A stretch of 32,000 bases of DNA, taken from positions 1 to 32,000 of the forward strand of contig JAEOSH010000011.1 in assembly GCA_016840465.1 (NCBI GenBank), written 5' to 3'. The position numbers were made by a program, and so were the translations under genes. Below the pieces are notes generated by a model that was given only the letters and a program-made list of their open reading frames with translations, did not search any database and was not told the DNA's origin. Origin of the DNA: Candidatus Baldrarchaeum yapensis (GTDB taxonomy: Archaea; Asgardarchaeota; Baldrarchaeia; Baldrarchaeales; Baldrarchaeaceae). Positions 9,070-18,553 of the stretch are shown one piece after another (position 1 is the first letter of the stretch; each line of letters starts with the position of its first letter).

Positions 9070-10200
9070 TCATTCACGTCTATGTGCAATTTTTGAGACC
9101 AATAACAACAGCATTACAATCGGTACTAGGAGAAATACTGTAAGTTCGGGTATAAGGGCCTCCACACTTTCTGTGAGAGGCGTGGATCCCCACTTTTCAA
9201 TAATAATTTTCGGAAAATAAACAATTGCATATGTTATCGTTAAGAGCAAAGGTATCCTTAATGGAAGATCCTTAAACAGCGAAAGTAGCATTCTTCTTTC
9301 TTCCGGCGGAGTTATACGTGGCGCCAAGTATATCTTTATTCTGGGATCCTTTCGCTGAAGATCCTTTAAATAAGCCGAGGCTCTTTTCAGCACTCTCTGC
9401 CGCCCAATTTCGTATTTACCTTTTCGCGTTCTTCGCTCTATTAACTCTCTTAGATAATGTATCGCGTCGATAGTTAAAAGTGGTCGGCGAGGGATTATCA
9501 TCTGAGGTTTCTCTGAAATTTTTTCTTTAAATCGAAGCAACTCATTCACCTGCCTCTCTATCCTACGGCTTCTCTTCATAGATTTCTCGAAAATCTCGTC
9601 AACATATGATGAGCGAAATGACATCTCTAGCCCCACATATGAGATGACCGCTAAGAGTACTCCCATTAGCGGATCGCTGTACTCTATTTTCAGGTTTTCA
9701 AACGGAATCCCGATGCGCACACATATCATTGGAAATAAGATCAGTAGATAAATGCTCAAAAAGGATAGAATTGCCCCTCTTACTGACCCGATATACGCGA
9801 ATGCTACTACCCCTAAGATCCCTATAATTATGCAAAATTGAATGAGAAATATTGGCGCATTTGCATAAAACTGTTGCAAATCAAATCTTACTTCTGCTGG
9901 ATGAGGAAGCCATAGAGAAATAAAATTTTGATAAAATTCATTAACTTCCTCCATAGAAACAGAGGTTCCATCACCCATTATTTGTACTGCAGCAAACATG
10001 ACGAGGATGGCAAGCCCTAGCCCTGTCAGCAGTAAAAATTCGTAAATGTAGAAGATACCCAACTTTAGCAATGAAACTATGAGATTTACCGTTACCGATA
10101 TGTCAAAAAACGTCTCAGGAATTCTTCGTAAGAGCATATACCACGATATTAAAAAACAAATAAGAGCAATTGTCCTAAGCAATATTCGCGAGATCTGCAT
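9070..10200 (-). CDS. Polytopic membrane protein (about 7-8 TM segments with a central basic cytoplasmic region), MoxR-operon associated
   Basis: Several 18-25 aa hydrophobic stretches; starts 3 nt after the DUF58 gene stop. Confidence 0.75.
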   Translation of the reverse strand: MQISRILLRTIALICFLISWYMLLRRIPETFFDISVTVNLIVSLLKLGIFYIYEFLLLTGLGLAILVMFAAVQIMGDGTSVSMEEVNEFYQNFISLWLPHPAEVRFDLQQFYANAPIFLIQFCIIIGILGVVAFAYIGSVRGAILSFLSIYLLILFPMICVRIGIPFENLKIEYSDPLMGVLLAVISYVGLEMSFRSSYVDEIFEKSMKRSRRIERQVNELLRFKEKISEKPQMIIPRRPLLTIDAIHYLRELIERRTRKGKYEIGRQRVLKRASAYLKDLQRKDPRIKIYLAPRITPPEERRMLLSLFKDLPLRIPLLLTITYAIVYFPKIIIEKWGSTPLTESVEALIPELTVFLLVPIVMLLLLVSKIAHRRE

Positions 10201-10203
10201 CCC

Positions 10204-11526
10204 TTACACCTGCGCGAGACCCCTCATCTTCATTTTCAAATACTCGGAAATCACCGCAGGGATACAGTCATCGGGACCCACATTCACCACCGCTACACCG
10301 TATTTTTCTATTTCACGTGCTACTGCTCTTCGTTTCTCCCACATCTCTATTAAAAGCGCCTCGGCGAGTGCCCTTTCCACGGGAGACAGTTCCTCGGCAC
10401 TCACCTCAAACCATGGACCAAATGGGGAAATTACCACAACGCTGTGTCCTCTTGCAACTGCTAACTTTATACCCTCTAAAATGAATGAAGATGGCGCCTC
10501 TAGGTCCGTAAATATCAGGAAAAGAGTGCGCCTTTTCAGTCTGCTGATCGCGTATTCTATAGCATTCGCCAAGTTTGAACGTCCTCCCGCGCTGACCTTT
10601 GCTAAGACATCTAGGATGTCGTAAAATTGTTTTTCGCTCGATTTGGGTTTAATGAACTCATGAACTCTGTCTGAGAACACGCACAGACCAACATTGTCCT
10701 TACGCTCTAATGCCATTTTCACTAGTGTCACAATGGCCCTTATTGAATATTCCAGTTTGTTCTCCTCTGGTGGACCCACAGCCATCGACTTGCTACTATC
10801 CAAAAATATCATTATTTCCACATTTCGTTCACTCTCAAATTCTTTCACCATTAGTTTGCCAGTTCTAGCGGTTGCTTTCCAGTCTATTTTTCTGAACTCA
10901 TCCCCCACTTCATACTCTCTTATCATCAAAAACTCCATACCTATTCCCTTTTGCTTAGTGCTGTGAACCCCATACTCCATCCCTATAAATCTCGCTCTTG
11001 ACAGAATATCTAACCTCTTTATTTCCTCGTAGGATGGATAGACAGTGATTGTGGTAATTGAGGGAATTTCCCTTTCTGCCCAGAAAAATCCCAATCTGTC
11101 TTTTATTACTAATCTTATTGGGCCTATCGCGTACGTGCCGCGCATTTTTGGATATAAAACGTAAGAATATGTAAATGATGCTCCTGGAGGAAGGTTTGCA
11201 ACAGCGACGTTGTCTCCAGCAATTACTTCGAAGACTTCAGGAATGTTATCCCTTATCTCCACTAAATCATAAGCATATCTGCTCCTATTTTCGATTGTGA
11301 CCTTTATATTTACAAAATCTCCTGCGAACACCTTGTCCTTATCTAAAATCCTCATGACGATAATATCTGCGAAAGATACCGTATAGTAAAAGAGAGGCAT
11401 CGTTACTGCTATGGATAGGATTAATAAGGTTCCAATAAACACGAAGAGCAGTTCGGATAGCGATAACCCCATTATGAAGAGGAAAATCCCGAGAACCGTA
11501 ATTGCTCTTCCGCGAGGGGCCATCAT
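10204..11526 (-). CDS. DUF58 / von Willebrand factor A domain protein (MoxR partner)
   Basis: N-terminal TM pair and Ig-like region; EFLMIREYEVGDEFRKIDWKATAR DUF58 signature; MIDAS-like LDSSKS. Confidence 0.9.
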   Translation of the reverse strand: MMAPRGRAITVLGIFLFIMGLSLSELLFVFIGTLLILSIAVTMPLFYYTVSFADIIVMRILDKDKVFAGDFVNIKVTIENRSRYAYDLVEIRDNIPEVFEVIAGDNVAVANLPPGASFTYSYVLYPKMRGTYAIGPIRLVIKDRLGFFWAEREIPSITTITVYPSYEEIKRLDILSRARFIGMEYGVHSTKQKGIGMEFLMIREYEVGDEFRKIDWKATARTGKLMVKEFESERNVEIMIFLDSSKSMAVGPPEENKLEYSIRAIVTLVKMALERKDNVGLCVFSDRVHEFIKPKSSEKQFYDILDVLAKVSAGGRSNLANAIEYAISRLKRRTLFLIFTDLEAPSSFILEGIKLAVARGHSVVVISPFGPWFEVSAEELSPVERALAEALLIEMWEKRRAVAREIEKYGVAVVNVGPDDCIPAVISEYLKMKMRGLAQV

Positions 11527-11539
11527 ATGCCTTCTCCCT

Positions 11540-12499
11540 CTACGCCGGAACGCTTACCTCTTCTAGAATCTCCTCGATGATTCTCTTAACGCTAACACCT
11601 TCAAGTTCGGCTTCAGGCTTCAAGATTAGCCTATGGTTGAGAACGTTGAATGCCAGCGCCTTTATATCGTCTGGTGTAACGTAATCTCGACCATGAAGTA
11701 TTGCTCTCGCTTTGGATGCGTACAAAAAGACAATAGATGCACGAGGGCTTGCTCCCAGCAATATTAGGGGGTGATTTCGCGTTCTCACAACGATATCCCT
11801 TATGTAGTAAAGGATGCTGTCGTCGACGTATACGTCTCTAATTGCTCGTTGCATTGCAACAACGAGTTTCGGTGAGGCCACTGTTTCCACGTTTTCCCCA
11901 ACATACGCGTTTTTTCTCCGAAGAATTTCAACTTCTTCTTCTGCAGATGGATAATCTAGTATAAGGCGGAAAAAGAACCTATCGACCTGAGCTTCTGGTA
12001 GGGGGTATGTTCCCTCTAATTCTATAGGGTTTTGCGTCGCTATTACAATGAAAGGTGTGGGTAGCGGGTATGTTCTGCCCTCTATCGTCACCTGCCTCTC
12101 CTGCATACATTCTAGTAGAGCCGATTGCGTTTTTGGAGGTGCTCGGTTTATCTCATCGGCTAATATTACGTTTGCAAAAATAGGGCCCTTCTTAAGATAA
12201 AAGCGCCCGGTCTCCTTGTCGTATACATTTACACCAATAATATCTGATGGCAGTAGATCCGGCGTAAATTGTATTCGCTTAAACTCGCATCCTAACGTCC
12301 TAGCAAACGTTTTGGCTATCAGCGTCTTCGCAATCCCAGGAACCCCCTCCAGCAACACGTGACCCTCGGCAAGTAGTGCAATCAATATGTTTTCGAGTAT
12401 GTCGCGTTTGCCGACGACAACCTTGCCGATCTCATTTAGTATTCTTCTTGTTATTATTCTTACTTCCTTTAACGTGAGTACGGGAAGTTCTTCACCCAA
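11540..12499 (-). CDS. moxR: MoxR family AAA+ ATPase
   Basis: [14 protein letters not shown] (Walker A), [30 protein letters not shown] (Walker B), [31 protein letters not shown] start after GGTGAGG. Confidence 0.96.
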
Positions 12500-13811
12500 C
12501 TTTCCTCACCAACTCGTCAAGAAACTTTATGTCGAAGTAGTATTTAAGAAAGTCTTCTCTTCCTATCTGCCTCCGCCCTCTTAACACGTCCCTTATGCCC
12601 CTTAATGCCTCTCTGATTTTTCTGAGTGTTTGAGGATCGACCTTGCGACTCAAAAAGTCTAAGAGATATTCTTCCTTTAGATCTTGTACTTTAAGTATCT
12701 TTGAAGCTTCTTTCCTGAAATACTCGTACAATGTTCTTAAAGCCTCCCTATACATGCCATATCTTTCATAAATATGAAGTTTTGCCACAAAGCTTCCGAA
12801 CTTTCCTCTCCTTCTAAATGTTGGTCTCTTTATCTTTATCCCACGTCTCCTAAGAACCCTTAATGCAAAGACTGATGCTATTACCGGAAAAATTAACGCA
12901 AGATATGGCGTCGAGGTGAACCATATAAGGGGCTTTAAAAAAAGTCCGCACACAGTCACATCCGAAAATCCCTCCCAATTGAGATGGCTTTCATCGAAGA
13001 TTATGGTAACATTCGTTTTGCCGTGTGCCAGCCATTTTATTACATTTAACGCAAAGACGGCATTATCTCTGCGAGTTATCATGTCATTTATGAAAACGCT
13101 CGGATCGCTAATTAAGACTACTCTTCCACGACCTATTTCTGCCACCGCGACTACCGGGAGCGGTCCTGGAATATCCGTTCCATTGAGTATTCCGTAGGGC
13201 TGGTGATCCATATCGACATCGAGCCAACTGTACCGTGAACTCATCGCTACTACTTGGAACACTCCACCACCAGTTGTGTTTGTCAATGCCATTTTAATAG
13301 CCGAGGGATAATTGAAAAGAATTTCGTGTACATCCTCAAAAATGGGGTGCGGGAGGAAGTTCCTTATTATTGGAAGTACGGGATTCTTGTCATAAGACCC
13401 GGCATCCATCAATAAATATCCATAAAAACTCACCTCAGGAAACGTTTGTAATAATAAAGAGTTTGCACTACCGAAATCATCCGCTATTAATACTCCTCCC
13501 CCATTTATTATGAACGGTATAATTCCAAAGATTCCATCATCAGGAGTGTACATTTTTGACGGGCCTATTATCACAATAACGCAGTTCTTGTTGAGTTTAT
13601 TAGCAACACTTAACGATGATACTACAACCTTCACCTTGTAACCTCTCTCCTCCAGCATTTCTTTAAATTTCGAACAGCCATCCCAGTCTTTGTTGAATAC
13701 GGAAAATGTTGGAGTTTTCCCTGGTTTAAAGATCAATACGGAAAGCATAGGCATTAACGCAACAACGAATGCTAACGAAAGAAGCATAATAGAAACACTA
13801 ACTCTTGGCAA
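12492..13811 (-). CDS. DUF4350-type (class I GATase-like) membrane-anchored protein
   Basis: N-terminal [56 protein letters not shown], second TM, cytoplasmic tail. ORF is open to 13862; TTG 13811 after GGGAGG is the likelier start. Confidence 0.82.
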
Positions 13812-16800
13812 GTGAAAGAATCCCTCCCGTAACTTCCTTGTAAATCTTGGAGAGTGCCTCAACGAAAGATCTGTACTCGTCCACTCCTATAGATTTTATT
13901 CCATATCGGGCACGTTCAAATGTCCTCACGATTCTCAATAACATGTCATACCCTAATCCGTACCTTTCGGATATTCTGCGCGCAAATTCGGCGGGAGTTT
14001 CGCCACGAGACCTCTTTACATGATAATATAAGAGTATAAGCTCCTCATAGAGTTTATATCCCTCGAGTACCGCCTCTCTAAATCTCCTTCTTCTAACAAG
14101 GTCGTTTATCCTATCTACCCTCTTCTGCAAATGCATCAGGATGCCTTTCTTCTTTTCTTCCCGCTTTATACGCTTCTTAAAGTAATATGCAACCATAGAG
14201 ACAGCCGCCACCGTGGCAACCACATATACGGCTATCTCCACGGTACCTGAGATCCCCAACGGCGCTCCCTCTGCGGTAACGTTGACAATAAACTCACCGG
14301 AGGAAAAAATCTTCGTTCCGTTGTAAAGTTTACATCTCAATTCGGCTCTTATTGAGAGCACGTATGAGCGCCTTCCCAAATCTTCTACGACGTACGTGCA
14401 AATATATGTACCGTTTCCGATATTTGTTGCCCGGATTTCGGTATTATTGACATAAATAATAACAAGTCTGCCGTCGACTGGCGTGCTGTTATCCGTAACT
14501 ACGTTAACTACTATGGGTATCTTATCTCCCGGCCTTGCACTCTTATTGGCATGAAGAGTTATCGTCACATTCGAAAAAATGTCAAATGCCTTCTGGTAGT
14601 TTGAAGGGAGATAGTAGAGGCTTCCCATGTATAGTACTGAGAGGAAGAACCTTCCATTTTTACCATCGGCCGATGGCGCATTACACGTTATGTTGAAATG
14701 TCCGTAAGCATCTGTGGTTGTGTTCTTTTCACCAACATAGATAACAGCACCGCTAATCGGAGTGCCTCTGTCATCGGTCAATCTTCCTTCTACGAGTACC
14801 TCCTCACCCTCGAGATAGGGTGGCGGCGGTGTGACATTAACGTTGATCTCCGTCCGTGCGTTTATTATGATATAATGTTCCATTGCTAGTGTCAGCTTTA
14901 TTGTTTCATTTGAAAACAACAAAATGGTGTAATTTCCGACCTCGACCTCATAGGGTATTGTCACGTTCGCGATAAACTGTCCAGACTCGTTTGTGTAAAA
15001 TACTTGCCCCATGGATGTCTCTTTTCCGGTTTTCGCATTAATCAGTTCTACAGATATAGGAGCGTTCGAAACCGGATCATCAGTTTCGTTCAACACTTCT
15101 CCAAAAAGTATTAGACTTTCCTCTCCTCTCGTCACGTTACTGTCTTGAACATCAAAGATACACGTGGCATTCATGACTACTGCGACCTTTTTCTGAATAT
15201 TTGCAAGTTTCACGTAAGGATGCCCCGGGTCGAACGTTACATTCAACAAATAGTATCCGATCGGCTGGTCAATCGGGACAAAAACGTTCCAAAGGCATCT
15301 GTTCGTATTCGAGATCGTCTTATTCTTATTTATAAAACTTAATGTGAAAGTACCGTTTATGATCGTGTTGTTGTCGAGAACGACCGATGCGTTCACTGAG
15401 AACGTGTGATTTCTAAATACATGATCCTCCGCGTTGACTGACAGCTTACATGTTGCGAAAATGGTGACATTGACGAATGCCTTTGTCGAATTGAGTAACG
15501 TTACTCCATTTACCACATATCCCGGGAAGTATAACGTCATATTTGCTGGGCCCAAACTCTCTGATATGCTTACATACATTGCCCCACCGAATTTGCCATC
15601 GTTCGTCAATTGTAGAGTTCTGCCCTTAACTCCATTGAGAATAATCCAAATTTCGGAATTTACGCCTATAACGCCCATTTCGGTACCATTCTTTTTATCA
15701 TATATCCACTTGTCCACTAGCATTCCGCCGATTTCCAGTTGTTTCCCTCGAATAACCTCACTGTTGTTTCGGGGCTTATCGCATACTATTAGAACGTCCC
15801 CCGTGAAAAATAATGATGTCTGTCCAGATGCTATTATATACTTCGTTCCATCACTCGTTACTACCCAGTCCGCACGAAATGTGTGATTACCGACCACATA
15901 ATTGTCCAGAAAAACATCATTAAATACAGCATTCCCGAAATTATTCGTGACATTTTTTCCTAGTACTCTACTCACGGAGCTATCATAAAATTCCAAGATT
16001 TCGTCTCGTATTTTCCATACAATAGTAGGGTTTTCTGCTATTAACGTACCATTTAACTGAAAAGAGTGTCCTCTTTCCACGTAAGTTGTTCTTAAATCGG
16101 ATTGTGCAGAAAGGAGGAGTGCCACCTGAGGATTTACAACGTAAGGGTCGCAGACCCCATTGGTCATGAGGTAGGAGTAAATATACGGGGACGGATCAAA
16201 GGGGATCCAAGCCCCCCTTATCACACCATTCTCTTCGTAAGGAATCCAAACCTCCACCCAGAAGTGCAGATGGTACGCATATACTTTTCTCACATCACCC
16301 TCTTTAACTCCTGGGAGAAATCCCAGAACGACCCTTGCAGGGATCTTTAGTAGGCGTAATGTTATCGCGTAAGCGGTCGCAAAGTGTAAAGATATTCCAC
16401 TCTTCCTCCTAATAAACCAAGCAACCCAATCTTCATCGCTAGTGGGCTTATCAGACGATCCGTGGTAAAGCATCTCTAAATCATATGAAAAGACTTCCTG
16501 ATAGAATAAAAGAACCTTTAGTGCAATTTCGAAAGTCGAATTCCCCTCAAGTCTGCTAAAGGTGGAAGTGATGAAGGATTTTACACTCTCTGGAAGGTCA
16601 TTCTCAGGTATTTGGAGATATTGTTTGAGATCTTCCCCGATAGTCGTTTCATTTGGAGGTAAGGAATGCATGGAAATTTTTGTCAGGTTTATTTCAACAT
16701 AATTAACCTTATATTCCAAATAACTTGTTCCGCTACTCGAGAACGACGCATCTAGTATCACAGCGCCGTAATTGTCTCTAGATATCGCTACTTCCAGCGC

Positions 16801-17427
16801 ATCGGTTATATTGATGCTATTTGCTACCATTTGGGGGTAGCCGCTTTCGTTCACCAGACATGGAATATAGGAGATGTATTGAGTGGCGTGTGTGAAGTTC
16901 ATGCGAATAGTGTAGGTGGAGAAAGGTGCGGAAACGCCACCGAAAATGTAAGTAGTATTGTCCGATATCAACCAAGTCCCTGGGTCATCTCCAACCCTAC
17001 CAGTATAATAATCCATGGCATAGAATCTCCAATATCTCGGAGGATCTGCCGGATATACTTCAAAAATTAGCGAATCGGCATTTGAGATACCCTCATAGGT
17101 AAGAAGATCGAGCCAATCGATTGCTGAGATGTCCTCCAGCGTTGGCGATAGCCCTTGGACTATTATCTGTATCCACCAGTTACCAGTTGTCGCGTTCCAT
17201 ACAGATATGTCGACTGATGAGGGTGGGATTTCATCGTACGGTACCTGTTGTTCCACTTGAGCGCGGGCCGGACTTATGAGGATTGAGAAAGGTACGATTG
17301 ATGATGTTAGTATTAATACCGTAAGAACTGCCGATAGGAAGTACCTTCTGGAAAATGATGTTGGCAAATGCTCGTCACCCATATTTTTCATGCCTATACT
17401 GTTTTTCAAACTTTTTGGCACTTGCAT
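13798..17427 (-). CDS. Large surface protein with transglutaminase-like (TgpA-type) domain, Ig-like repeats, TM anchor and DUF4129-like cytoplasmic tail
   Basis: N-terminal hydrophobic segment; YWRFYAMDYYTG; GISLHFATA...IPARVVLGF...HFWVEVW...WIPFDPSP; many N-x-S/T sequons; C-terminal TM followed by ETPAEF...FERARYG. Start may be 17427, 17391 or 17382. Confidence 0.85.
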   Translation of the reverse strand: MQVPKSLKNSIGMKNMGDEHLPTSFSRRYFLSAVLTVLILTSSIVPFSILISPARAQVEQQVPYDEIPPSSVDISVWNATTGNWWIQIIVQGLSPTLEDISAIDWLDLLTYEGISNADSLIFEVYPADPPRYWRFYAMDYYTGRVGDDPGTWLISDNTTYIFGGVSAPFSTYTIRMNFTHATQYISYIPCLVNESGYPQMVANSINITDALEVAISRDNYGAVILDASFSSSGTSYLEYKVNYVEINLTKISMHSLPPNETTIGEDLKQYLQIPENDLPESVKSFITSTFSRLEGNSTFEIALKVLLFYQEVFSYDLEMLYHGSSDKPTSDEDWVAWFIRRKSGISLHFATAYAITLRLLKIPARVVLGFLPGVKEGDVRKVYAYHLHFWVEVWIPYEENGVIRGAWIPFDPSPYIYSYLMTNGVCDPYVVNPQVALLLSAQSDLRTTYVERGHSFQLNGTLIAENPTIVWKIRDEILEFYDSSVSRVLGKNVTNNFGNAVFNDVFLDNYVVGNHTFRADWVVTSDGTKYIIASGQTSLFFTGDVLIVCDKPRNNSEVIRGKQLEIGGMLVDKWIYDKKNGTEMGVIGVNSEIWIILNGVKGRTLQLTNDGKFGGAMYVSISESLGPANMTLYFPGYVVNGVTLLNSTKAFVNVTIFATCKLSVNAEDHVFRNHTFSVNASVVLDNNTIINGTFTLSFINKNKTISNTNRCLWNVFVPIDQPIGYYLLNVTFDPGHPYVKLANIQKKVAVVMNATCIFDVQDSNVTRGEESLILFGEVLNETDDPVSNAPISVELINAKTGKETSMGQVFYTNESGQFIANVTIPYEVEVGNYTILLFSNETIKLTLAMEHYIIINARTEINVNVTPPPPYLEGEEVLVEGRLTDDRGTPISGAVIYVGEKNTTTDAYGHFNITCNAPSADGKNGRFFLSVLYMGSLYYLPSNYQKAFDIFSNVTITLHANKSARPGDKIPIVVNVVTDNSTPVDGRLVIIYVNNTEIRATNIGNGTYICTYVVEDLGRRSYVLSIRAELRCKLYNGTKIFSSGEFIVNVTAEGAPLGISGTVEIAVYVVATVAAVSMVAYYFKKRIKREEKKKGILMHLQKRVDRINDLVRRRRFREAVLEGYKLYEELILLYYHVKRSRGETPAEFARRISERYGLGYDMLLRIVRTFERARYGIKSIGVDEYRSFVEALSKIYKEVTGGILSLAKS

Positions 17428-17436
17428 TCCGATATC

Positions 17437-17715
17437 TTAACCGCGTAAAGATCTCCTTCTTGAGAAACGCTCGATGAATGACCTTATCGCGATCTCTTTC
17501 TCAAAATATTCGTCGAGATCCCGTGACAATTTCTCCTCTATGACCTCCTTTACTGCTGTTTTTATTAACAACGGGAAGTCTATTTCTCTAATTGCTCTTC
17601 TCAGTTCTTCTTTTATTATCCGTTCGAGATACTCCTTTATCTCGTCAAAAATTTGCCTTTTTAAAAACTCAGAAGATCGAGAGTCAATGTTTCCACTCGA
17701 TGAGGATTGCGACAT
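17437..17715 (-). CDS. Small acidic/basic helical hypothetical protein (92 aa)
   Basis: Fills the gap exactly between PAC2 (10 nt) and the transglutaminase gene (9 nt); amphipathic helical pattern. Confidence 0.7.
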   Translation of the reverse strand: MSQSSSSGNIDSRSSEFLKRQIFDEIKEYLERIIKEELRRAIREIDFPLLIKTAVKEVIEEKLSRDLDEYFEKEIAIRSFIERFSRRRSLRG

Positions 17716-17725
17716 AGCTTTGCAC

Positions 17726-18553
17726 CTAGCTTATGTACTCTGGCGGCTTCCTCTCCTCTACTTTCCTTGTAACTCTTCTTTCCGCTTGCAGAAATCTTCT
17801 CTTCATTGCCTCCGCCAACTTAACAACTCTCTCGGCCTCGCGGTGGAGAGCAGATGTGTTGATATCCAAGTTAAACAGTTTACATATCACATCCACTAAT
17901 GCCTTAGAGGCCGCTGGATCCTTTGGTATCCCTACAAGCCTATCAATCATGTAGCAGGCTTCTCCTAAGAATATGAGACCGTCAGCGCCGTAAAGCGTGC
18001 TTGCAATTATGGGGACTAAACCGTTCATTCCAGTAATTACACCTTCCCTTAATACCTGTACGTGGGATACTCGAGATGTAACAAATGATATTATTTCGTT
18101 GGACGTCCCCGTTACGTACACCTTGGGATTCAATGTGGGTTCATCGATAGGGGATGCTGCAAGAGCAATTACCATCTTTGCTCCCATACTCACAACCGTT
18201 CTTGCCACGAAGTCGGATAACATGTTCATTCCTATTACTGACGTTGGTTGCCACTCCCCACTGATAAATATGAAATCATTTTCAAGTTTATCATTCTTCC
18301 AGACATAAATTCCGCAGGCGGGCGCTAAAAGCCTACCTTCCAAGGTGACCTTGACGTTTGGTGGGAAATCCGCAGAATATATTTCTGCAACTTTGACGGC
18401 ATTTGTATTTTTTATCAAAAAATCAACTGCTGTTTTTCCAGCAAGGGCGATGCCGGGCATCCCTTGTATACACACTGGGTTCTTTAATTTCAGCGAATCA
18501 AGTTGTGTGAGTTCTCTCATCTGCACCTCTAAAAGTACGCTTTTCTCCTCCAT
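17726..18553 (-). CDS. PAC2 family (archaeal proteasome assembly chaperone-like) protein
   Basis: IQGMPGIALAGKTAVDFLI, AEIYSADFPPNV, GEWQP, ITGMNGL, DPAASKALV, C-terminal EYIS. Confidence 0.9.
   Translation of the reverse strand: MEEKSVLLEVQMRELTQLDSLKLKNPVCIQGMPGIALAGKTAVDFLIKNTNAVKVAEIYSADFPPNVKVTLEGRLLAPACGIYVWKNDKLENDFIFISGEWQPTSVIGMNMLSDFVARTVVSMGAKMVIALAASPIDEPTLNPKVYVTGTSNEIISFVTSRVSHVQVLREGVITGMNGLVPIIASTLYGADGLIFLGEACYMIDRLVGIPKDPAASKALVDVICKLFNLDINTSALHREAERVVKLAEAMKRRFLQAERRVTRKVEERKPPEYIS

Follow-up and report, generated by a model that had tools for sequence, protein, structure and literature searches.

An Asgard counterpart of TgpA with a probably non-catalytic transglutaminase-like head on a predicted glycosylated surface stalk

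The window analysed here is a stretch of 32,000 nucleotides from contig JAEOSH010000011.1 of Candidatus Baldrarchaeum yapensis. It carries a gene that is the Asgard counterpart of bacterial TgpA, in which Ser occupies the position of the catalytic Cys of the transglutaminase-like core. Across the orthogroup, the residue at this position is fixed lineage by lineage, being Ser, Gly, Pro, Trp/Phe/Tyr, Asp or, rarely, Cys. We favor the reading, to which we give a probability of about 0.6, that the protein bears a non-catalytic, predicted binding head on a glycosylated surface stalk.

Architecture and predicted topology

The gene and the domains of its product are located as follows.

13798..17427, minus strand: gene of the TgpA-like membrane glycoprotein, a 1209-aa ORF with Pfam Transglut_core, CarboxypepD_reg and DUF4129
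17275..17331, minus strand: N-terminal hydrophobic segment, signal peptide or membrane anchor, residues 33-51 (Kyte-Doolittle window score 2.37)
16153..17172, minus strand: TgpA-like module, residues 86-425, N-terminal beta-sandwich plus transglutaminase-like core
16192..16530, minus strand: Pfam Transglut_core (PF01841), residues 300-412 (E 6e-14, 52.7 bits against a cut-off of 23)
15790..16131, minus strand: first stalk domain, residues 433-546, a macroglobulin/Ig-like beta-sandwich
14683..14793, minus strand: CarboxypepD_reg-like beta-sandwich, residues 879-915 (Pfam 34.8 bits against a cut-off of 32.3)
14179..14235, minus strand: C-terminal transmembrane helix, residues 1065-1083 (hydropathy score 2.0), followed by a Lys/Arg-rich stretch
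13852..14019, minus strand: predicted cytoplasmic DUF4129 domain, residues 1137-1192 (Pfam 33.2 bits against a cut-off of 24.8)

Genome searches recovered orthologues of about 1150-1250 aa across Asgard genomes, and in the public collection the protein cluster to which the 1209-aa protein belongs counts 5 sequences. The earlier note had proposed a transglutaminase-fold domain, which is borne out by the Pfam match and by structural comparison. Specifically, the TgpA-like module in the AlphaFold model (model pLDDT 81.9, pTM 0.80) aligns over model residues 54-393 with TgpA (PDB 6g49) at a VIA-align Z of 22.3 and an r.m.s.d. of 3.5 Å for 264 of 288 residues, with a Foldseek E of 4e-13; erythrocyte protein 4.2 is also among the Foldseek matches. 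The first stalk domain (model 401-515) resembles the MG domains of complement C5/C3 and alpha-2-macroglobulin with VIA-align Z values of 11-12, and the CarboxypepD_reg-like domain is part of the same stalk, which spans about residues 433-1064.

The N-terminal hydrophobic segment, the only one at that end, is followed by A-R-A-Q and modelled by AlphaFold as a low-confidence helix, and DUF3488/TgpA_N scores 14.7 bits in the 1209-aa protein, below its cut-off of 30. Every one of the 39 N-x-S/T sequons falls between the two hydrophobic segments (shuffled mean 11.2, maximum 21), with none C-terminal to TM2. In the predicted topology, which has every sequon between the TM segments, the head is extracellular and MoxR is cytoplasmic.

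The operon and its relation to TgpA

The gene belongs to a conserved Asgard operon that encodes the transglutaminase-like protein, DUF4350, MoxR, DUF58/vWA and an 8-TM protein. The other four genes in the window are these.

12492..13862, minus strand: DUF4350 membrane protein, the next operon gene (Pfam E 1e-17)
11540..12499, minus strand: MoxR-type AAA+ ATPase, AAA_3 plus AAA_lid_2 (Pfam E 6.5e-67)
10204..11526, minus strand: DUF58/vWA protein with an N-terminal TM segment and a BatD/DUF11-like domain (Pfam E 2.7e-32)
9070..10200, minus strand: polytopic membrane protein with ~8 hydrophobic segments, the weakly conserved fifth operon gene

The polytopic protein matches no Pfam or NCBIfam family; in seven further loci tblastn matches it on the downstream side of DUF58 (E 1e-5 to 3e-19). 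None of the six operon proteins scanned against NCBIfam reached the cut-off of a family. A related-locus search, seeded with a five-row alignment, shows that the order TG-DUF4350-MoxR-DUF58 is kept in Asgard loci whose nucleophile site carries Ser, Cys, Gly, Pro or Trp, MoxR being 58-74% identical between syntenic loci.

TgpA of Pseudomonas aeruginosa (PA2873) is co-transcribed with PA2875 and PA2874 and has transglutaminase activity in vitro (PMC3507681). Like the Asgard protein, TgpA (PDB 6g49/6g4h) combines a beta-sandwich with a transglutaminase core, places this domain outside the membrane, ends in DUF4129 and is encoded in an operon with MoxR and DUF58. The features of a TgpA-type MoxR-DUF58 operon found in the window are the MoxR and DUF58 neighbors and the DUF4129 domain after a TM helix, whereas the polytopic TgpA_N is absent. 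TgpA has six TM helices with DUF3488/TgpA_N and a Cys-His-Asp triad, while the Asgard protein has one N-terminal TM segment and a Ser. Unlike TgpA, the Asgard protein also carries a sequon-rich stalk of ~630 residues of beta-sandwich domains, and its operon adds DUF4350.

A general MoxR-vWA-TGL operon has been described (PMC3495828), which likewise unites the same three core genes in one operon, in both archaea and bacteria. The published model needs an active thiol peptidase beside the ATPase, whereas in Asgard the nucleophile is mostly absent and the transglutaminase-like domain is predicted to lie outside the cell, across the membrane from MoxR. Our literature searches on Asgard transglutaminases, transglutaminase-like pseudoenzymes and DUF4129/DUF4350/DUF58 found nothing relevant.

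Active-site residues

The three residues of the site are encoded as follows.

16390..16392, minus strand: codon TCT of Ser346, at the catalytic-Cys position by alignment to the TgpA Cys
16264..16266, minus strand: codon CAC of His388, in the aligned H-x-W-V-E motif
16195..16197, minus strand: codon GAT of Asp411, in the aligned D motif

The minus strand around Ser346 reads gga ata TCT tta cac ttt, that is G-I-S-L-H-F, and in the phmmer alignment against PDB this Ser stands under the Cys of the TgpA (6g49) motif G-F-C-A-H-Y, with the H-x-W-V-E and D motifs also aligned. The bases read and this alignment thus confirm what the earlier note had seen, namely a Ser (TCT, 16392-16390) in place of the catalytic Cys beside an intact His and Asp. 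AlphaFold places Ser346 at the very start of a helix (model 314-327), His388 in the next long strand and Asp411 immediately after the strand following that one, with pLDDT of 93-95 in all three blocks. The modelled placement of Ser346, His388 and Asp411 is that of a canonical papain/transglutaminase site. In its Pfam score, papain-like core, His and Asp the domain agrees with the transglutaminase-like superfamily; only the catalytic Cys is missing, with Ser346 in its place.

Another Cys could have taken over the nucleophile position, a possibility raised with the original observation. An alignment search of the region found no Cys column common to the Ser lineages, and the same-order (Baldr-type) orthologues lack Cys throughout the active-site region. 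The sole exception is a Cys column at the protein's own Leu359, 13 residues down the helix, in the AGY-Ser families only. Elsewhere, the same genome encodes another transglutaminase-like protein, in which Cys-His-Asp is intact.

The nucleophile site across Asgard

A word-index homologue search returned 10 proteins and no close orthologues; the orthologues came from exhaustive representative and genome searches. The family is matched (E <= 1e-20) in 224 of 301 sampled Asgard genomes. Our census of the site covers 90 Asgard genomes in 17 families; families f5, f14, f16 and f17 and genome G003, whose weaker matches may be paralogues, are left out of the argument. The states of the three positions are listed below.

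Ser-His-Asp: 14 genomes in six families, with TCN codons (TCT/TCG/TCA) in f1, f2, f4 and f6 and AGY codons (AGC/AGT) in f3 and f20
Gly-His-Asp/Glu: f12, 15 genomes, codons GGT/GGC/GGA
Ala-His-Asp: f27, 7 genomes, four codons
Asp-His-Glu: f26, 1 genome
Pro with both His and Asp lost: f7, 16 genomes, with Met/Ile/Leu at the His position
Trp/Phe/Tyr-Tyr-Asp/Glu: f9, 20 genomes, with His replaced by Tyr
Cys-His-Asp: only 9 genomes, from f18 (6) and f8 (3 of 5)

The Ala-type proteins of f27 (~650 aa) have no MoxR/DUF58 neighbor in the loci inspected and are counted as relatives, not as syntenic orthologues. The Ser lineages include the window's own family, Baldr-type, Odin-type, Wukong-type and f20, and in all 14 of their genomes the Ser is strictly kept with His and Asp, despite synonymous changes. 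A fault in sequencing or assembly, or a recent change from TGT confined to this genome, has next to no probability as the source of the Ser: TCT is one base from TGT, but close orthologues read TCG, TCA or TCT at this codon, Ser recurs in 13 other genomes of five further families with five different Ser codons, and the protein cluster itself has several members. We reject both.

The transglutaminase core is the best-conserved region of the protein in 7 of 7 pairwise comparisons; even against a triad-less f7 protein it is 33% identical, and the stalk 20%. Among the 39 sequences of Ser, Ala, Gly or Asp type (14 Ser and 25 others), His is invariant, as one of 16 such columns among 285, and the position of Asp411 is Asp in 92% and Glu in the remainder. 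In the tree, the nucleophile column requires 13 state changes on 61 rows. The f6 Ser orthologue, from a genome labelled Asgardarchaeum abyssi, is sister to an Ala protein (support 100/98), and this pair is nested in an otherwise Ala clade (support 100/99); Ser and Ala therefore interchange between close relatives within one clade.

Catalytic readings of the site

The original observation had asked whether the domain is a pseudo-enzyme or has switched to a serine nucleophile, and had taken continued selection on His and Asp as a sign of the latter. This argument fails, since His and an acidic residue, Asp or Glu, are kept in the 25 sequences with Ala, Gly or Asp at the site; retention that is equally strict in lineages with no nucleophile says nothing on Ser catalysis. 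With Ser only one of at least eight residues at the site, the pseudo-enzyme option is the better supported of the two and the switch the less supported.

The best surviving alternative is that, in the Ser lineages, Ser346-His388-Asp411 is catalytically active as a serine hydrolase or acyltransferase whose substrates are envelope proteins or glycoproteins, while the Ala, Gly, Pro and Trp lineages lost the activity secondarily. The strict Ser/His/Asp of the 14 Ser genomes, held across six families through synonymous codon turnover, counts against a pseudo-enzyme, and a working triad would look identical at the level of sequence. Ser also begins a helix at the canonical nucleophile position and arose along two codon paths, TCN and AGY. 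It has been suggested that transglutaminase-like domains bearing Ser could be serine peptidases (PMC3495828), and engineered Cys-to-Ser mutants of the papain-like enzymes bleomycin hydrolase and congopain retain partial activity (PMC10318531), but no natural Ser-type transglutaminase-like domain is reported as active in the literature covered. Ser makes up two of the seven single-base amino-acid neighbors of TGY and is its most accessible replacement, so that two origins of Ser are expected without selection for chemistry. A serine hydrolase should keep its nucleophile throughout the orthologues, yet Ser is present in 14 of the 90 sampled genomes, Ser and Ala swap among close relatives, and lineages with Gly, Pro or Trp there retain both operon and core. 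We therefore consider a working Ser triad unlikely.

The strict His of lineages with no nucleophile could instead reflect a catalytic role of another kind, which would also count against a pseudo-enzyme. The His-Asp pair might perform nucleophile-independent chemistry, such as water activation or the holding of a metal or ligand, with a small Ser, Ala or Gly making room, so that the mechanism has changed and the enzyme is not dead. An invariant His with a universal Asp/Glu over deep Asgard divergences, the limitation of the site to small residues in those lineages and the conservation of the core are all consistent with this. Against it, two large syntenic lineages have no His (Met/Ile/Leu in f7, Tyr in f9), the former also no Asp, and both keep the operon; the literature covered offers no precedent. 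We regard such a change of mechanism as less probable still than a Ser hydrolase.

A probable non-catalytic binding head

We return to the preferred reading, a probably non-catalytic head. As in inactive, binding transglutaminase-like domains, the nucleophile is lost while the fold and the conservation of the domain are kept. The protein would run from an N-terminal anchor or signal through an N-glycosylated ectodomain and one TM helix to a cytoplasmic DUF4129 tail, and in the ectodomain macroglobulin/Ig-like beta-sandwiches would form a stalk that carries the TgpA-like head, a beta-sandwich with the transglutaminase-like core. The function conserved in the head would have no need of a nucleophile, and Ser346 may be a small helix-capping stand-in for Cys, within easy mutational reach. 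By analogy with other inactive transglutaminase-like domains, which have been described as peptide binders (PMC3495828), we propose the former active-site cleft and its His-Asp pair as a putative binding site for a peptide or an envelope client. The cytoplasmic DUF4129 tail may couple the head to the MoxR-vWA machinery.

A bolder and rather doubtful version of this reading goes further. An enzyme of the TgpA type from a MoxR-vWA operon would have turned, in Asgard, into a non-enzymatic extracellular receptor or adaptor, its nucleophile dispensable and replaced independently many times, its His-Asp pair recruited for ligand recognition and its DUF4129 tail relaying head occupancy to the MoxR-vWA ATPase.

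Replacement of Cys by Ser is in itself already described. Transglutaminase-like or papain-like domains with Ser for Cys are known in menin, a subset of CCDC135/DRC7, DUF2145, DUF2272 and DUF3750 (PMC3495828; PMC10318531), where, as here, His and an acidic residue stay and activity is debated; menin has been described as a scaffold, probably without activity (PMC10318531). In those families Ser is the conserved state. In Asgard, by contrast, members of a single syntenic orthogroup differ at this position, several residues being fixed by lineage and Ser being one of them, which speaks against a shared mechanism based on Ser. Erythrocyte protein 4.2, Rad4/XPC, Cyk3 and CC2D2A resemble the Asgard protein in keeping the fold, losing the nucleophile and serving in binding or scaffolding (PMC3495828); they differ in being eukaryotic, cytoplasmic or nuclear and unlinked to a MoxR operon, and most have lost more of the triad.

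Significance

Prokaryotes very commonly carry MoxR-vWA-transglutaminase operons, whose function is unsettled; the single published mechanistic proposal takes the transglutaminase-like protein to be the protease of the system. Since the operon is kept although residues of nearly any kind stand in for the nucleophile, the function conserved in the head, at least in the Asgard phylum, is most likely not covalent catalysis. As to method, an intact His-Asp beside a Ser is no evidence for a serine-nucleophile switch unless the orthologues are examined. The natural Cys, Ser, Ala and Gly variants offer a ready-made mutant series for expression work on Asgard surface proteins, and the protein itself is, in the archaea nearest to eukaryotes, a putative major component of the cell surface with predicted heavy glycosylation. 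If the receptor or adaptor reading is true, the system would be a trans-membrane device for surface remodelling or sensing, and not the degradation machine that is currently proposed.

A TgpA-like, predicted surface protein with Ser at the catalytic-Cys site

Minus-strand bases 16400–16381 translate as G-I-S-L-H-F and place a serine where the transglutaminase-like family has its catalytic Cys. In a Pfam scan of the protein, three domains exceed the cut-off. A phmmer search of PDB sequences matched the periplasmic domain of Pseudomonas aeruginosa TgpA (6g49), with Ser346 aligned to the catalytic Cys of TgpA and the His and Asp motifs also aligned. The codons, the Pfam match and this alignment bear out the earlier note, which had described Ser at the Cys position with His and Asp intact.

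Features of the TG gene and its 1209-residue product
13798–17427, minus strand: TG gene (ORF, 1209 aa)
16392–16390, minus strand: TCT codon of Ser346 (sequence read)
16266–16264, minus strand: CAC codon of His388, within H-L-H-F-W-V-E (sequence read)
16197–16195, minus strand: GAT codon of Asp411, within I-P-F-D-P (sequence read)
Residues 33–51 and 1065–1083: hydrophobic segments flanking the ectodomain
Residues 86–425: TgpA-like module, beta-sandwich plus transglutaminase core (VIA-align)
Residues 300–412: Transglut_core (Pfam; E 6e-14, 52.7 bits, cut-off 23)
Residues 433–546 (15790–16131, minus strand): first stalk domain, beta-sandwich (VIA-align, model)
Residues 879–915: CarboxypepD_reg-like repeat (Pfam, above cut-off)
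Residues 1137–1192: C-terminal DUF4129 (Pfam, above cut-off)

The AlphaFold model of residues 33–560, based on an alignment of 25 orthologues, has a mean pLDDT of 81.9 and a pTM of 0.80. Its top Foldseek matches are both TgpA entries (E ~4e-13), and VIA-align superposes it on 264 of the 288 TgpA residues with a Z of 22.3 and an r.m.s.d. of 3.5 Å. In the model Ser346 opens the core helix, the next long strand holds His388, and Asp411 comes just past the strand after, all in blocks with pLDDT of 93–95. The modelled part of the stalk is its first domain, which is closest to the macroglobulin (MG) domains of complement C3/C5 and alpha-2-macroglobulin (VIA-align, Z 11–12). The stalk reaches to about 14236 (minus strand), with weak Pfam MG2/MG4 matches beyond this domain. 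Since the two hydrophobic segments bracket all 39 N-x-S/T sequons (39/39; shuffles average 11.2 and reach at most 21), we infer that head and stalk are extracellular and glycosylated and that the chain crosses the membrane once, leaving the DUF4129 tail in the cytoplasm.

The MoxR operon and its distribution

Four genes lie downstream of the TG gene on the same strand.

Genes downstream of the TG gene
12492–13862, minus strand: DUF4350 membrane protein
11540–12499, minus strand: MoxR AAA+ ATPase
10204–11526, minus strand: DUF58/vWA protein
9070–10200, minus strand: protein with roughly eight TM segments, without a Pfam or NCBIfam family

The cluster is an instance of the MoxR-vWA-transglutaminase-like operon, widespread and previously described by Zhang and Aravind (PMC3495828). 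Its P. aeruginosa counterpart is PA2875-PA2874-tgpA, and the periplasmic domain of TgpA has transglutaminase activity in vitro (PMC3507681). The order TG-DUF4350-MoxR-DUF58 is retained in loci of eight Asgard families from our genome search (f2, f3, f6, f7, f8, f9, f12 and f18). The 8-TM protein, which tblastn also matched (E 1e-5 to 3e-19) directly 3' of DUF58 in seven further Asgard loci, is probably a fifth member of the operon. As listed, the DUF4350 ORF begins with a TTG at 13862 and shares 65 bases (13798–13862) with the 3' end of the TG gene; its actual start may lie further downstream. Immediately upstream of the TG gene are a 92-residue charged ORF and a PAC2-family protein (17437–18553, minus strand); the Baldr-type locus L033 has both of these neighbours, and the f3 locus L107 has PAC2.

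With a profile built from the N-terminal 513 positions, 224 of the 301 genomes sampled from the phylum gave a match at E <= 1e-20. Named relatives are labelled Baldrarchaeota, Candidatus Asgardarchaeum abyssi, Thorarchaeota, Wukongarchaeum, Heimdallarchaeota and Promethearchaeota, which places the window in an Asgard archaeon; Baldr-type genomes belong to its order. When 1.84 billion representatives were searched exhaustively, 3505 matched at E <= 0.001, but only 13 at E <= 1e-30. About 250 domain matches in the representative proteins examined include 40 with Ser-His-Asp and 11 more with Ser-His and the acidic column unaligned. Metagenomic giants of 1400–3250 residues (P0025, P0028, P0044, P0052, P0058, P0066 and others) carry three or four transglutaminase-like domains each, with Cys-His-Glu and Ser-His-Asp domains mixed in the same protein.

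Replacement of the nucleophile across the phylum

The triad residues and their codons were read in 90 Asgard genomes, which span 17 families; six genomes with weaker matches (one f2, G003; two f5; one each of f14, f16 and f17) were left out of the argument.

Residues at the nucleophile, His and acidic sites
f1 (the window's own), f2, f4, f6; 7 genomes: Ser (TCT/TCG/TCA), His, Asp
f3, f20; 7 genomes: Ser (AGC/AGT), His, Asp
f12; 15 genomes: Gly (three codons), His, Asp or Glu
f27; 7 genomes: Ala (four codons), His, Asp
f26; 1 genome: Asp, His, Glu
f7; 16 genomes: Pro, Met/Ile/Leu/Ala, Val/Ile/Leu
f9; 20 genomes: Trp, Phe or Tyr, Tyr, Asp or Glu
f18; 6 genomes: Cys, His, Asp
f8, first head; 5 genomes: Cys, His (3 genomes) or Tyr (2), Asp
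f8, second head; 5 genomes: Pro, His or Tyr, Asp

At this site at least eight residues are each fixed in some lineage, and Ser is just one of them. The comparison of Ser with Cys among orthologues that the earlier note had proposed gives Ser-His-Asp in 14/90 genomes and Cys-His-Asp in 9/90, the latter confined to f18 (six genomes) and, in f8, to the first head of three genomes. Because Ser recurs in f1, f2, f3, f4, f6 and f20, sequencing error or a private mutation is excluded as the source of Ser346. The f8 orthologues (loci L018, L019 and L057–L059; about 1300–1600 aa) have two tandem TgpA-like heads, a duplication with one degenerate copy.

The possibility, also raised before, that another Cys acts as nucleophile found no match: the alignment of Ser-type sequences holds no substitute Cys common to the Ser lineages, and Baldr-type heads have no Cys whatever. 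The sole recurrent Cys column, at the window's Leu359, is limited to f3 and f20. The organism does employ Cys-type family members, since a second transglutaminase-like protein on contig C47 of its genome (L002:1078–2484, minus strand; 468 aa, C-terminal hydrophobic segment), in an unrelated gene context, retains the full Cys-His-Asp triad, in the motifs G-D-C-D-D, G-H-G-W-A and P-I-D-L.

In a careful IQ-TREE analysis of 61 rows, with the three triad columns taken out and seven outside Cys-His-Asp/Glu proteins as root, the Asgard proteins form a single clade (100/100) and the window's protein clusters with Baldr-type genomes (98/96). The Cys lineages sit (98/92) within a larger clade (98/95) that they share with the Gly, AGY-Ser, Pro/Asp and Trp lineages. 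On this tree 13 changes are needed at the nucleophile column, and the codons are consistent with an ancestral TGY, from which TCY, AGY, GGY, TGG, TTY and TAY are one base away. Of the seven amino-acid replacements that a single base change in TGY can produce, two give Ser, so that Ser could arise twice without selection on serine chemistry. The sister of the f6 Ser orthologue (TCT) is an Ala protein (100/98), and the three other members of their clade are all Ala (100/99); the simplest path to this Ser is from Ala, by GCT to TCT, which makes Ser and Ala interchangeable in this lineage.

Role of the head

The transglutaminase core is the best-conserved region in all comparisons made, with 51–52% identity to Baldr-type orthologues (stalk, 27–28%) and 33% to the triad-less f7 protein (stalk, 20%), which argues that the domain is functional rather than decaying. 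Judged from these orthologues, the nucleophile is shown to be dispensable for the conserved role. At a probability of about 0.6 we favour a head that binds without catalysis, for which there is precedent in further inactive transglutaminase-like domains (PMC3495828) and in menin, described as a scaffold (PMC10318531).

That the Ser lineages have an active Ser hydrolase is unlikely. Ser, His and Asp are each invariant in the 14 Ser-type sequences, and the earlier note had taken retained His and Asp as expected under a serine nucleophile; however, both sites are also kept in 25 Ala/Gly/Asp-type sequences (His invariant; acidic site 88% Asp, the rest Glu), and of 285 columns only 16, that of His388 among them, are invariant across all 39 sequences. 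Retention without a nucleophile points to selection for a role not requiring one. Hence, of that note's two options, the pseudo-enzyme is favoured and the argument for a Ser switch falls away. A chemical role of the His-Asp pair independent of the nucleophile would agree with this retention but is improbable, as His and Asp themselves can be lost: the Pro (f7) and Trp (f9) lineages keep the operon despite losses at these sites.

As a binding module, the head would be displayed on the glycosylated stalk, and the DUF4129 tail would tie it to the cytoplasmic MoxR-vWA pair; both the binding role and this coupling are inferred. Ser in place of the catalytic Cys is already known in transglutaminase-like/papain-like domains, including a CCDC135 subset, menin and several DUF families (PMC3495828; PMC10318531). 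In the literature searched we found no description of nucleophile loss in a TgpA-type MoxR-operon member across most of a phylum, through many independent replacements and with the operon retained, nor of a head predicted outside the cell, a location at odds with the proposed model of MoxR-driven degradation.
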